Below, in pieces: positions 4,535 to 9,166 of a stretch of DNA of 11,704 bases (its first letter is position 1; each line of letters starts with the position of its first letter). The stretch is from Candidatus Odinarchaeia archaeon. GTDB taxonomy: Archaea; Asgardarchaeota; Odinarchaeia; Odinarchaeales; Odinarchaeaceae. The notes beneath the pieces are model-generated. The model was not told where the DNA came from, made no database searches, and worked only from the letters and a program-made list of their open reading frames with translations. Both the position numbers and the translations under genes were made by a program. The DNA lies in NCBI GenBank assembly GCA_029856525.1, contig JAHQXC010000040.1, positions 1 through 11,704 of the forward strand, given 5' to 3'.

Positions 4535-5098
4535 CTAAAAATTTTGGTGAAAGATCTTCTGTAAAAGCGTTTTAAAGCTTTCAACAATGTTAAAACCTGT
4601 AACAGCTACGCTTCTAATATAAACCGTGTTTTGATCGCTTTTCAAAATGGAGCGTAGCTCACTCTCAGAAACAACATCTTCTAAATCATACTTGTTTAAA
4701 GCGACTACAACAGGGATTTCCTTCTCAAATCGTTCACCGAAAAAAGATTCTAATTCACGCCAACTTCGAAGATTCTCGTCGATATATTTTCTCTGAGAGT
4801 CAGCTACAAATATTATTCCATCCACGTCTGAGAGCACTGTTAACCGTGTTTCAGCATAATAGTCTTGACCGGTTGCAGACCAGACTTCAACGTTGATAAC
4901 CCAGTCTCTCTGGTTAATAGAGATAGGGGCGTAGTCGAAAAATAATGTTCGACCTGTAGATGTCTCTAATGATCGGATAGATTGATTCGGAGCGATTTTC
5001 TCGAATAACTTTTTTAGCGAAGTTGTTTTACCGCTCATCGCCGGACCGTAGTAGACTATCTTAACAGCTATACGCTTATTCTTCCAATCAACCAGCAT
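4535..5098 (-). CDS. mglA: MglA-family small GTPase
   Basis: KIVYYGPAMSGKTT (G1), TGRTLFFDY (MglA switch I with intrinsic Arg), WSATGQ (G3-equivalent; TVPGQ in Myxococcus MglA), DGIIFVADS, NKYD (G4), SVAVTG (G5). Close match to the MglA signature. Confidence 0.9.
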   Translation of the reverse strand: MLVDWKNKRIAVKIVYYGPAMSGKTTSLKKLFEKIAPNQSIRSLETSTGRTLFFDYAPISINQRDWVINVEVWSATGQDYYAETRLTVLSDVDGIIFVADSQRKYIDENLRSWRELESFFGERFEKEIPVVVALNKYDLEDVVSESELRSILKSDQNTVYIRSVAVTGFNIVESFKTLLQKIFHQNF

Positions 5099-5101
5099 CT
5101 T

Positions 5102-6007
5102 CTACCCCCATAACCCTTCTATAATATCGCCTAGAGCGGAGAGCGCCCCCCTTCTCACATATTTATGGAAGTCTAACCCCCACTCCGCATATATAAAATC
5201 AAGTATTCGCGAAGCGGAAGCCCCATTATATTTAATCGAGTTTAATAGTGTTTTCTCTGAGATAAACCAGTCAATGTTAAATTCGTTTATAAGATCAATT
5301 CGAGTCAACAGGTAAAGAGCACGCCTACAGGCGTTAACGAAAAAGAATACCTGAGAGTTAAATAAGCTTTCTTTAAGCCCCTCCTCTTCAGATTCGAAAT
5401 TTAGAAGAGTTGAAGAGAAGATAGAGCTGATATTTGATCCGTAAATTTTATTTTTGAGAACTCGTTTAATCCGTTCTATAGAAGATTTTGATTCCGCTTC
5501 CACACTTTCTATTAAGTTTTTTTCAAACGATACGTCGAGTTGACTGTGCTGACGGTTGGAGGTTAATTCGACACTGCTATCAGAGTTTTTGAAAAATTTA
5601 ACAGTTAATATCACATGGTTATAGGCTTCAACATAGTTTAACAATTGTTGAAAATTCTTCTCATCCCCGCTTGTTGAGATCACCCATCCGCGGAAATCGT
5701 CGAAGCCTTCAAAGATATGTTTAACAGTATTAGAGAGAGCTCTGAAAACGGATCTAGGGCAGTCTATATCCATGCGCTCTAATTCAATAATACCATGATA
5801 TTCTTTAAGAGTCGCGAAATCGACTAGAAATACTCTCTCATACCTGTTAGGTATAAGCCTCATCATTAAGCTATTAAGATCATCGGCGGCCTTCTCGTCA
5901 TCGCTGTAAATAATTATCGGAATCCTATCTAACAGGCTTCTTAAAATTAAGGGAGCGGTGTCTCTTTTAACATATCCTCCAAGAGTTAAACTGAAGCGGC
6001 TCATCAT
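5102..6007 (-). CDS. Hypothetical protein with a DENN-core-like N-terminal motif (301 aa)
   Basis: Uninterrupted ORF coupled to both neighbours (ATGA overlap upstream, 3-nt gap downstream). SD GGTGAG sits next to the start, so the second ATG at 6004 may be used. LILRSLLDRIPIIIYSDDEKAADDLNSLMMRLIP resembles the cDENN pattern by eye only. The ORF is confident; the domain call is not. Confidence 0.6.
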   Translation of the reverse strand: MMSRFSLTLGGYVKRDTAPLILRSLLDRIPIIIYSDDEKAADDLNSLMMRLIPNRYERVFLVDFATLKEYHGIIELERMDIDCPRSVFRALSNTVKHIFEGFDDFRGWVISTSGDEKNFQQLLNYVEAYNHVILTVKFFKNSDSSVELTSNRQHSQLDVSFEKNLIESVEAESKSSIERIKRVLKNKIYGSNISSIFSSTLLNFESEEEGLKESLFNSQVFFFVNACRRALYLLTRIDLINEFNIDWFISEKTLLNSIKYNGASASRILDFIYAEWGLDFHKYVRRGALSALGDIIEGLWG

Positions 6008-6948
6008 CTCACCGTTAAAGTTTCAAAGATTTCACCGAATTCTAAGCTGGGGATAACGGGTTTAACGCTCTCCAATTTTTCAAGCAACTCGTTAAATGAT
6101 TTCACGTAGGATGAAAATAGAAGGCGGAGTAAACCTATCCTAGCATTGCTCTGTTTCTCAACTTCAGCGTATAATATCGCGTTTTTTAAACCTTGAATAA
6201 AAATAAATTCATTACTGTACTCGCCTATAATACTCTCCACAAAAGACCTTTTCAATATCCAGAATACTCTTCTAGCAGTATCGTAAAGAGAAAACGCCAT
6301 CGCGCACAGCGACTTGTCGAAGCGGCTATCAGATCTATCATATGAGGAAATCACGTAACCGTTATTTAAACTAATAAATGAGCGTGTGATTTCAGGTATA
6401 GATTTAACTATTGCTAAAAGCGAGTTATTAATTTCATCGGCAAACGATTCATCTAAAATAAAATTATATTTAGGAAGTGTTAAAGTCTGCTCGCCTTGAT
6501 ATTTGAGACTGAAATTTCTTAAAATATCCTCTACTTCCTCAGGTGTGAAGTTGATTAAAGGAGGTTTTAGAGCTTGAAAATTTGTTATCAACAGATTTTT
6601 GATCGCGTTTAAACTATTTTTAGCTTCAACATAAATCGCTCCTATATTAGTTTTCTTTTGAGCTGTAAGCGTTATAAAATATTCCTCTAACATAGGGAGA
6701 GGTGATAAAAAAATTTTAGCGGAGGTCCCCTCAATTAAAATATTGTTCAGTTTATTCGAAGAAAGCTGGTTTACAGTGGAATAAATAGCTGAAGCCGCTG
6801 AGCTGACACTGAACACTTCTCTTTTACTAAGCCAAACACCCGCGCTTGTAATAGGATACCCGTCTTTTTGAGTTAAAACAACGTTTTCAACACCTGGAAT
6901 ATTTTTAATATTTTGCAGGTGAAGTTTTAATAAATCATCGTTATACAT
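6004..6948 (-). CDS. Tandem roadblock/LC7 (MglB/LAMTOR2-like) domain protein
   Basis: N-terminal roadblock: LQNIKNIPGVENVVLTQKDGYPI...SSAASAI...LNNILIEGTSAKIFLSPL...NIGAIYVEAKNSLNAI. C-terminal roadblock: IVKSIPEITRSFISLNNGYVISS...LCAMAFSL...VESIIGEYSNEFIFIQGL...RIGLLRLL. Adjacent to an MglA-type GTPase. Confidence 0.85.
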   Translation of the reverse strand: MYNDDLLKLHLQNIKNIPGVENVVLTQKDGYPITSAGVWLSKREVFSVSSAASAIYSTVNQLSSNKLNNILIEGTSAKIFLSPLPMLEEYFITLTAQKKTNIGAIYVEAKNSLNAIKNLLITNFQALKPPLINFTPEEVEDILRNFSLKYQGEQTLTLPKYNFILDESFADEINNSLLAIVKSIPEITRSFISLNNGYVISSYDRSDSRFDKSLCAMAFSLYDTARRVFWILKRSFVESIIGEYSNEFIFIQGLKNAILYAEVEKQSNARIGLLRLLFSSYVKSFNELLEKLESVKPVIPSLEFGEIFETLTVR

Positions 6949-7066
6949 ATTATTAACACCGTGACGCGGTTAAAGGATACTACTTAAAAGTTCACAGAAG
7001 TGTGTTAAAGTAAATATTTAAATTCAGCTTACTATTATTGAAGCGCTTAACAGCTAGGTGAAATCC

Positions 7067-8275
7067 TTGGAGTATCCTTTCGGAAAAGTGTTGGAGGATT
7101 ACCCGCTTATCTCAGATAAAAAAGTGATATACTTAGATTCAGCTACTAAAACACTTCCACCTTTAAAAATAATGGAAGAAATCAAACAATACTATGTTGA
7201 AATAGGTGTCTCCCCCAGGAGAGGCGCGCATCATCTCTCAGTATACGCTGAAAGAGAGTTAGAGGAAGCTAGATCGAAGATAGCGGGATTAATCAACGCT
7301 AGAAGCGAGAATATTATTTTCACTCCTAGTGTACCATTCAGCGCGGCTACTTTAATTTCAGGATACCCTTGGAAGCCCGGTGATAAAATATTAATCAGCG
7401 AGGCTGAGCATAACTCGATCCTCGCCCCAGCGCTGCAAGCTAAGAATAGATTCAGATTAAACCATATAATACTCAGATTAGATAACAGCTTAAAATTGGA
7501 TTTAGAGGATCTTAAGAATAAAATAAACAGGGATTGTAAAATTCTTCTAGCAACACTTACACCAATGATATTAGGCGTAAATAATTCTCTAAACGAGATT
7601 TCGAAAATAGCTCATGAGTATAATTGTTATGTGATTTCTGATGCGACTCGCGCTGTAATCCACCAGGAAGTTGATTTTAACAAACTAGGCTGCGATGCAT
7701 TGATTTTCTCAGGTTGTATAGGCTTACCTGGCTTAGAAGGGACTAGCGTGATATGCGCTAAAAAAGAGTTATTAGAGATGATAGAGCCGTTAACACCCGG
7801 CAGCGGTTCTATAAGGGAGGCGTCATATAATGAGTATAAAAATAATCCCCTCCCGGATAAATTAGAGGCTGGATTAATCAACATGAGCTCCATTATCAGC
7901 TTGAAAGAAGCTGTAAAATATATTGAAAATATCGGTCTTGAAAAAATCCGCGTATACAATTTAAAACTTGCAAATATGATATATGAAGAGTTAAAAAATA
8001 TGAAAGGGATTAGATTATACGGGCCGAGGGAGGGGAGGCTAGAGGCGCCTATCGTAAGCTTTAATATCGAAGGATTTAACAGTCACGACATATCAATATT
8101 TTTAGATGAAACCAATAAGATAATAACACGCTCCGGCATGCAATGCAGCTATCTCCTCTCATATAAAATTAATGAGAAAGGTGTAGTTCAAGTATCACCT
8201 CATTACTATAATACACCTGAGCATGCGAGTAGTCTAATAAATACACTAAATTTAATAATAAGCGAATTATCTTAA
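7067..8275 (+). CDS. Class V aminotransferase / SufS-like cysteine desulfurase homolog, probably catalytically degenerate
   Basis: YLDSAT, EAEHNS, ISDA, EAG, RSGMQC and HYYNT place it in the SufS/CsdA family, but the SGHK motif reads SGCI. TTG at 7067 is preferred over the track's GTG at 7058 because AGGTGA (7056-7061) is a well-spaced SD. Confidence 0.85.
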   Translation: MEYPFGKVLEDYPLISDKKVIYLDSATKTLPPLKIMEEIKQYYVEIGVSPRRGAHHLSVYAERELEEARSKIAGLINARSENIIFTPSVPFSAATLISGYPWKPGDKILISEAEHNSILAPALQAKNRFRLNHIILRLDNSLKLDLEDLKNKINRDCKILLATLTPMILGVNNSLNEISKIAHEYNCYVISDATRAVIHQEVDFNKLGCDALIFSGCIGLPGLEGTSVICAKKELLEMIEPLTPGSGSIREASYNEYKNNPLPDKLEAGLINMSSIISLKEAVKYIENIGLEKIRVYNLKLANMIYEELKNMKGIRLYGPREGRLEAPIVSFNIEGFNSHDISIFLDETNKIITRSGMQCSYLLSYKINEKGVVQVSPHYYNTPEHASSLINTLNLIISELS

Positions 8276-8291: not shown

Positions 8292-8391
8292 GCGGGGGTA
8301 GCCAAGCGGACTACGGCGCAAGCCTTGAGCTGTTTAAAGACAGCTTGTGATCCATTGGATCGCGCGGGTTCGAATCCCGCCCCCCGCGCCA
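8292..8391 (+). tRNA. tRNA-Ser(TGA) with a 12-nt intron at 37/38 (8330-8341) and encoded CCA
   Basis: Acceptor GCGGGGG/CCCCCGC; D-stem GCC/GGC; anticodon stem CAAGC/GCTTG with loop CT-TGA-G|A after removing CTGTTTAAAGAC; long variable arm GATCC-ATT-GGATC; T-arm GCGGG-TTCGAAT-CCCGC; discriminator G plus CCA. Confidence 0.9.
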
Positions 8392-8476: not shown

Positions 8477-9166
8477 ATGAAGATAAATAAAGAGGGTCTT
8501 AAAATAAAGCCGGTTATCAGTGAAAAAAATATTTTAAAATTAAAACAACTTCTTATAAAACTTTCAAAAAATATTCGACTCCAAGATGAAATCCCTACAC
8601 CGTTAAAAAACATTATGGGAGTTGATGTCGCATATAAAGAGGAGAGAGCGTTAACGGTAGGTGTATTATTCAGCTGGCCTGAATTAAAGCATCAGAACAC
8701 TTTTTACAGAGTTGATAACGTTCACTTCCCTTATATTCCAACGCTCCTATCCTTCAGGGAGGGGACGCTTATCATTAGATTTCTAAAAAATCTTCCTTTA
8801 AAACCTGATCTATTAATGGTTAACGCTCACGGTATAGCTCACCCGTTTCAATGCGGCTGCGCATCATATATAGGGTTATTAACAGATACACCGAGCATCG
8901 GCGTAGCTAAAAAGATAATATGCGGTGAACTAACAAAATGTGAAGAGGGAAAAAATATTGCATATTTAAGATTTAATAATAAAATTATAGGCGCTGTTTT
9001 AAATCCTGGTAAAAGATCAAAAGAAATAGTAGTATCCGCTGGCCACCGGGTCTCCCTAGAAACCGCGATAGAAATAACTTTAAACACTCTTAGAGGTTAC
9101 CGGCTTCCAATAATATTAGAGGACGCTCATAGAAAGGCAACCGAGCTATCAGCTGAAAAGCTCTAA
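8477..9166 (+). CDS. nfi: Endonuclease V (deoxyinosine 3'-endonuclease) homolog
   Basis: MGVDVAY, FPYIPTLLSFRE (PYIP wedge plus catalytic Glu), HGIAHP, SIGVAK, VSAGHRVSL, C-terminal DAH. The second catalytic Asp reads Asn (VNAHG). Confidence 0.92.
   Translation: MKINKEGLKIKPVISEKNILKLKQLLIKLSKNIRLQDEIPTPLKNIMGVDVAYKEERALTVGVLFSWPELKHQNTFYRVDNVHFPYIPTLLSFREGTLIIRFLKNLPLKPDLLMVNAHGIAHPFQCGCASYIGLLTDTPSIGVAKKIICGELTKCEEGKNIAYLRFNNKIIGAVLNPGKRSKEIVVSAGHRVSLETAIEITLNTLRGYRLPIILEDAHRKATELSAEKL

Follow-up and report, generated by a model that had tools for sequence, protein, structure and literature searches.

A SufS-like protein family of Asgard archaea that lacks the Schiff-base lysine and keeps the persulfide-loop cysteine

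Introduction

Cysteine desulfurases are the point at which sulfur enters Fe-S clusters, thiolated tRNA and cofactors. The described enzymes closest to the protein considered here are the type II desulfurases of the SufS/CsdA kind, with solved structures from Bacillus subtilis (5xt5), E. coli (1jf9) and Thermococcus onnurineus (5b7s). In B. subtilis, H342 of SufS swaps in as a zinc ligand of SufU during persulfide transfer from C361, and D343 forms a salt bridge with SufU R125 during the same step (PMC13066941). A related protein of Archaeoglobus fulgidus has given up the desulfurase chemistry: the A. fulgidus IscS has aspartate in place of the lysine, has no desulfurase activity, and gives a cysteine ligand to the [2Fe-2S] cluster on IscU (PMC7585200).

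Here we analyze a lysine-less SufS-like gene from a Candidatus Odinarchaeia archaeon (assembly GCA_029856525.1). It lies on a contig of 11,704 nucleotides (JAHQXC010000040.1), which we analyzed as a whole and refer to as the window; its product is the window protein.

Results

A full-length SufS-like protein with a dismantled active site

The gene occupies a stop-free ORF at 7058..8275 (+), which encodes 405 amino acids from a GTG at 7058 or 402 from a TTG at 7067 that is preceded by GGTGA, the two starts being equally plausible. Pfam PF00266 (Aminotran_5) matches the whole protein (E 2.6e-82). The score against TIGR01979 (sufS) is 267.3 bits, below the trusted cutoff of 475.1, and that against the second-best NCBIfam match, TIGR01977 (am_tr_V_EF2568), is 232 bits, below the cutoff of 377; the type I families TIGR02006 and TIGR03402 (IscS/NifS) give only 70–77 bits, which leaves the protein outside type I. 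An AlphaFold2 model based on a 100-sequence alignment had a mean pLDDT of 97 and a pTM of 0.94. When this model was searched with Foldseek, the best 50 matches were all of the SufS/CsdB/Nfs2 type (TM 0.89–0.94, rmsd about 1.8–2.1 Å), with SufS of B. subtilis, E. coli, S. aureus and Synechocystis and plant Nfs2 as the best PDB matches (TM 0.93 to the SufS structures); an ESM Atlas look-up returned generic Aminotran_5 clusters only. The window protein is a homologue of type II (SufS-like) desulfurases and has the class-V aminotransferase (fold-type I) fold.

We compared its active site with solved SufS-type enzymes by HMMER alignment (5b7s, 8d8s and 1t3i) and with relatives in an alignment of 184 sequences, of which 158 have the lysine; a later comparison set 60 lysine-less against 156 lysine-bearing sequences. 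Residues of E. coli SufS are given in E. coli numbering, and their equivalence to window residues rests on the alignments. FSGCIG, DATR, EAGLIN, RSGMQC and QVS align to FSGHK(G), DAAQ, EAGTPN, RSGHHC and RAS of the solved enzymes, and each of these motifs, including the full QVSPHYYN, is present in the translation, the coordinates of the first-pass annotation being exact. The active-site features are as follows.

7328..7339 (+), SVPF: site of the PLP-phosphate loop (N/G-T/A-T); the Thr95 equivalent, threonine in 97% of intact relatives, is proline
7406..7417 (+), EHNS: the first histidine is kept (His118, equivalent of the acid/base His123); the second is asparagine, as in some intact enzymes
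7565..7567 (+), Met: replaces the equivalent of Asn175, a contact of PLP O3′ and substrate
7640..7651 (+), DATR: the Asp200 equivalent (Asp195) is kept and is invariant in the lysine-less clade; the Gln203 equivalent is Arg198
7706..7723 (+), FSGCIG: site of FSGHK; His225 has become Cys220, and the Schiff-base Lys226 has become isoleucine (7718-7720)
7865..7882 (+), EAGLIN: site of EAGTPN; the equivalent of the phosphate-binding Thr278 is leucine
8084..8089 (+), His343-Asp344: counterparts, in the alignment, of the His-Asp pair found in SufU-type SufS (B. subtilis H342/D343)
8129..8146 (+), RSGMQC: persulfide loop; Arg358, Gly360 and Cys363 (8144-8146) are invariant in the lysine-less clade; the loop histidine is glutamine
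8189..8212 (+), QVSPHYYN: the equivalent of the substrate-carboxylate Arg379 is glutamine; His382 is a clade-specific, near-invariant gain

Intact enzymes hardly vary at these sites: among the 158 lysine-bearing relatives the Schiff-base column reads K in 158/158, D200 and R379 are likewise 100% conserved, and Q203, N175, H225 and T95 are conserved at 96–98%. In the window protein, T95, N175, Q203, H225, T278 and R379 read P, M, R, C, L and Q, leaving the equivalents of Asp200 and Ser223 as the only PLP contacts kept, and further replacements affect positions that are at least 80% conserved in intact enzymes (38, 52, 97, 121, 125, 169 and 230 in window numbering). The alignments thus place the pattern of replacement in the PLP and substrate site far beyond chance. 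The first-pass annotation had named four coordinated losses; all four are real, and its list was incomplete, with the phosphate-loop threonine, Asn175 and the loop histidine also gone. Mostly hydrophobic side chains have taken the place of the lost residues, making the former pocket hydrophobic, and a clade-specific insertion of one glycine follows the former lysine position in FSGCIG.

The residues that remain (window numbering) are Asp195 (E. coli Asp200), Ser218, Arg358, Gly360, Cys363 (E. coli Cys364), Ser380 and the fold core, together with Arg55-Gly56 of the cross-subunit HRG motif. His343 and Asp344 have the same spacing to the cysteine as in S. aureus SufS, a SufU-type enzyme, bar a one-residue insertion. 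What has gone is the apparatus of the first half-reaction (PLP binding, the Schiff base and the substrate carboxylate), and what has been kept is that of the second. A search of the 60 lysine-less sequences for an alternative conserved lysine column found none; all eight Odin-clade proteins have Lys31 (7148-7150), in the N-terminal active-site loop, but it is not conserved beyond them. Judged on these residues, the window protein is very probably free of PLP and unable to release sulfur from cysteine.

The gene is conserved under purifying selection in the Odin lineage

The genome that contains the window measures 1.32 Mb and is 93% complete. Orthologues in three congeneric Odinarchaeota genomes (70–86% identity) carry the same replacements, and synteny around the gene is complete across all four genomes. 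Nei-Gojobori dN/dS values against the three congeners were 0.055, 0.103 and 0.123, within the range of the eight flanking genes (0.017–0.18). The changes reflect neither error nor decay, because the congener orthologues share them and the gene has a dN/dS like that of its neighbors: it encodes a folded SufS-like homologue under purifying selection. The first-pass view that four losses in an intact, full-length ORF would not be a sequencing error is borne out, with the same changes found in the independent assemblies of the three congeners and in relatives from metagenomes as distant as 48% identity, and the orthologue comparison that it had proposed shows the losses and the cysteine to be common to all eight Odin-clade members (48–100% identity).

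The closest relatives are named Candidatus Odinarchaeota or Odinarchaeia. Searched against 1.84 billion representative proteins, this Odin clade stood isolated, with one representative at 50% identity and the next at 34%. With the Odin alignment as the query, genome contigs yielded matches in only two congeners and metagenome contigs yielded only proteins of 25–29% identity; an alignment of 25 sequences from the wider lysine-less clade offered no conserved stretch that could serve as such a query.

An ancient lysine-less clade spans the Asgard archaea

The closest matches outside the Odin clade also lack the lysine and have the same signature, in which the aspartate is kept, Gln203 is usually arginine, Arg379 has become glutamine, Asn175 has become hydrophobic, Thr95 is lost, and Arg359 and Cys364 are kept. 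In a maximum-likelihood tree of 87 proteins, 26 of the 28 lysine-less sequences, the window protein among them, formed one clade (SH-aLRT 99), which was recovered at 97 after removal of 29 active-site and signature columns (LG+G4). The nearest lysine-bearing group includes the intact paralogue from the same genome, a placement with weak support (69–86). Those clade members that carry names belong to Odinarchaeia, Promethearchaeota (Prometheo/Loki), Ranarchaeia, Kariarchaeaceae and Heimdallarchaeaceae. When we searched 400 genomes of the phylum with an HMM of the clade, every one of the 26 best loci, drawn from seven GTDB families, was lysine-less; we give the spread as at least seven Asgard families, because the HMM score does not separate lysine-less from intact genes and the sequences themselves were used to classify them. 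The scope is wider than the first-pass annotation had envisaged, and the gene is no local oddity: the phylogeny indicates that loss of the lysine is ancient, single and clade-defining, and that it has since been retained under selection across Asgard archaea.

Across the 60 lysine-less sequences, D195, D344, R358, G360, C363 and S380 (window numbering) are 100% conserved, which extends to the whole set the earlier observation that the window protein had kept its persulfide-loop cysteine. H382 is present in 97% of them vs 9% of intact relatives, H343 in 92% and Q378 in 80%; H365, another clade-specific gain, is present in 85% and is tyrosine in the window genus, and Cys220 is found in only 30% of the clade. 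The clade signature comprises D195, a hydrophobic residue at the lysine site followed by the glycine insertion, R358-x-G360-x-x-C363, H343-D344, Q378, S380 and H382, all of which the window protein has. Databases name the lysine-less proteins 'aminotransferase class V-fold PLP-dependent enzyme' or 'cysteine desulfurase'. These names are probably wrong and inflate the desulfurase repertoire inferred in metabolic reconstructions of Asgard archaea. The searchable literature, mostly without subscription journals, yielded no publication on a lysine-less SufS-type family, a desulfurase pseudoenzyme, or SufS of Odin or other Asgard archaea, and the family is apparently undescribed.

Two further patterns came to light among the lysine-less sequences. 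The proteins P0076 and P0107 sit within a clade of intact SufS-like proteins and mark a separate, second loss of the Schiff-base lysine; their signature differs, Arg379 having become serine and Gln203 leucine or alanine. In Asgard family f4, genus g29 (loci L045, L047, L048, L051, L054, L056, L057, L060 and L061), two different lysine-less paralogues form tandem pairs, one of the SSGCIGA...R-x-S type, with Gln203 and Arg379 retained, and the other of the SSGNIGA/SSSTSGA...Q-x-S type. This arrangement suggests hetero-oligomers of two dead subunits.

Partners in the genome and gene neighborhood

The genome has three desulfurase-like genes: the window gene, an intact SufS-like gene and an IscS/NifS-like gene. 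The intact gene (C13:8660-9910) answers the first-pass proposal to look for an active paralogue; it reads FSGHKG, DGSQ, RAGYHC and R-I-S, and its product is ~30% identical to the window protein. The IscS/NifS-like gene (C65:24827-25918; L003:1447-2676 (+)), whose product is ~24% identical to the window protein, also lacks the lysine (MSANSIYGP), and its best solved relative is A. fulgidus IscS2 (4eb5; 420 bits), which reads ISSNDIYGP. It is preceded by a DsrE2-like gene and followed by the only U-type (IscU/NifU-type) scaffold gene of the genome (C65:26014-26379; L003:2673-3068). No U-type gene was found within the window. The genome has a SufB-like gene, and a search of it for SufE, at 93% completeness, found none. 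An intact SGHK SufS-like gene is present in 9/9 lysine-less-bearing genomes checked (G000-G003, G007, G008, G010, G020 and G029), a co-occurrence that carries no weight either way, intact copies being all but universal.

The gene content of the window is of the Asgard archaeal type, with a V/A-ATPase B subunit, Arf/Ras-like GTPase and Roadblock proteins, Endonuclease V, Orc1/Cdc6 and an ArsR regulator. No gene context linking the lysine-less protein to Fe-S or thiolation genes was conserved across the families compared. We rejected the neighborhood as a functional clue, the synteny being complete within the genus but not across families.

Several neighbors are nevertheless of note in their own right.

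4535-6948 (-): operon of Roadblock, DENN-like and MglA-type small GTPase genes, divergent from the SufS-like gene
8292-8391 (+): tRNA-Ser(UGA), between the SufS-like gene and Endonuclease V
8477-9166 (+): Endonuclease V, the next protein gene downstream of the lysine-less gene and on the same strand in the Odin genus

The tRNA-Ser(UGA) gene is interrupted after position 37/38 by a 12-nt intron, has a long variable arm and encodes its CCA; Rfam (46.5 bits) and aragorn -i found it, and a default ARAGORN run missed it. Endonuclease V also lies directly downstream, after a 3-nt gap, in Asgard family f25 (L039:2698-3408, L040:793-1494 and L044:13-732), although the SufS-like proteins of that family and of the Odin genus are only ~34% identical to each other, and was not seen downstream in five other families. 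Because the tRNA intervenes in the window, we treat this adjacency as weak or ancestral synteny. In family f4, an ARPC4-like ORF (Arp2/3 20 kDa subunit, PF05856, E 2.9e-9; L033:204-689 (-), with homologues in 12 loci) lies divergently upstream of the lysine-less genes, beside an unknown ORF of 156 amino acids, as synteny within that family only.

Discussion

The explanation that best accounts for the findings as a whole combines a dismantled PLP site with a role as a partner in sulfur relay or cluster assembly, and we put its probability at roughly 45%. By analogy with the described systems, the function itself might be that of a PLP-independent persulfide carrier, or a donor of a cluster ligand, for a U-type scaffold or another acceptor, which we consider plausible but somewhat short of an even chance. 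Such a protein would still dimerize like SufS and would use only the apparatus of the second half-reaction, namely the cysteine of the R-x-G-x-x-C loop and the His343/Asp344 pair. Arg198, in place of Gln203, would pair with the buried Asp195 (Asp200) and probably neutralize its charge, because the site no longer holds a pyridinium. Cys363 would bear a persulfide or serve as a cysteine ligand; either the intact SufS-like paralogue of the genome or environmental sulfide or polysulfide would supply the sulfur, and the sulfur or the nascent cluster would be handed to a U-type scaffold or another acceptor docked through His343/Asp344. Several observations speak against a relay. His343 and Asp344 are also conserved in intact relatives, and their retention could therefore be structural inheritance, and the only U-type gene of the genome already adjoins the lysine-less IscS. 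Nor do the neighborhoods compared across families tie the protein to Fe-S or thiolation genes, and the window genus has tyrosine where the clade typically has His365.

The window protein could instead form a heterodimer with the intact paralogue, as the non-catalytic subunit, which the first-pass annotation had also envisaged. Because the active sites of SufS span the dimer interface, the single live site could be regulated, stabilized or redirected by a dead partner, and the retained Arg55-Gly56 of the cross-subunit motif would suit such an arrangement. A candidate partner exists in the same genome and falls, at the weak support given above, in the lysine-bearing group nearest to the clade. 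We nevertheless regard the heterodimer as unlikely: the two genes are unlinked (here they sit on separate contigs, and in a closed congener 15 kb separates them), their products are only ~30% identical, and the presence of an intact gene in every genome checked is uninformative when intact SufS is almost universal. The f4 tandem pairs lend some weight to hetero-oligomers in general, but each joins two lysine-less proteins and not a live one with a dead one. An artefact of assembly or sequencing, or a gene that was inactivated recently and is being lost, has a negligible probability; nothing beyond the unusual motif itself favors it, and it is excluded by the matching substitutions in independent congener assemblies and in metagenomic relatives to 48% identity, by a dN/dS of 0.06–0.12 over an ORF free of stops, and by the depth and monophyly of the clade.

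We judge a rebuilt pocket to be about as improbable as the heterodimer. In this reading the protein would still be an enzyme, or would bind a ligand or metal, with the new Cys220, Cys363, the gained His382, His118 and Arg198/Asp195 as a site for a metal, an Fe-S cluster or some other anionic or pyridine-like ligand; alternatively, PLP would be held non-covalently or through the Odin-specific Lys31. The changes are non-random, the clade shows the exchanges Q203 to R and R379 to Q repeatedly, Asp200 is invariant, and His382 (97%) and His365 (85%) are clade-specific gains, the former probably lying on the active-site strand, going by its alignment to SufS. Against this, just 30% of clade members have Cys220, and the very genus of the window has tyrosine in place of His365. 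The position of Lys31 in the N-terminal active-site loop and its invariance in the eight Odin-clade proteins would favor a PLP-holding role, but that lysine is not conserved outside the Odin clade, and all of the contacts for the phosphate and ring of PLP have gone from a pocket that is now hydrophobic.

Extending the relay or partner reading from the window protein to the whole family, we tentatively suggest, as something possible rather than probable, that the lysine-less proteins are an Asgard-specific, PLP-independent component of sulfur trafficking, a dedicated persulfide carrier or cluster-ligand subunit in which the rebuilt pocket of Arg198/Asp195, His382 and Cys363 forms a new sulfur or metal site. 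If true, delivery of sulfur would have been separated from desulfuration of cysteine, revealing an undescribed module of archaeal Fe-S or thio-cofactor biogenesis in the lineage closest to eukaryotes. The half-reactions of SufS are cleanly split in this family, which therefore lends itself naturally to the study of protected persulfide transfer and partner docking.

Comparison with the described systems shows what has been kept and what has been lost. Like the type II enzymes of B. subtilis, E. coli and T. onnurineus, the window protein has the SufS fold, length and collinear alignment (TM 0.93, 28–32% identity), the cysteine of the R-x-G-x-x-C loop, Asp200, Arg359 and the His-Asp pair that is used for docking of SufU. 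Unlike them, it lacks the Schiff-base lysine and the residues that contact the PLP phosphate and O3′, neighbor the stacking position and bind the substrate carboxylate; it has the one-residue insertion after the former lysine and the gained His382, and it scores 267 vs 475 bits against the sufS family. TIGR01977 (am_tr_V_EF2568), a SufS-related cysteine desulfurase family of unknown role, is a further relative, compared with the window protein by score alone.

With the PLP-free IscS of A. fulgidus (PDB 4eb5/4eb7/4hvk) and IscS1 of Methanosarcina acetivorans the window protein shares an archaeal origin, loss of the catalytic lysine and retention of the loop cysteine. Those proteins are of type I (IscS/NifS-like) and are encoded beside iscU, whereas the window protein is of type II, stands alone and stems from a separate loss event. 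It may be viewed, by analogy, as the type II counterpart of the A. fulgidus protein. That protein had shown that anaerobic archaea can keep a desulfurase protein while discarding its chemistry, and a parallel event is now seen in the SufS lineage, where the loss is ancient and family-wide, extending through Odin-, Loki/Prometheo-, Heimdall-, Kari- and Ran-type Asgard archaea.
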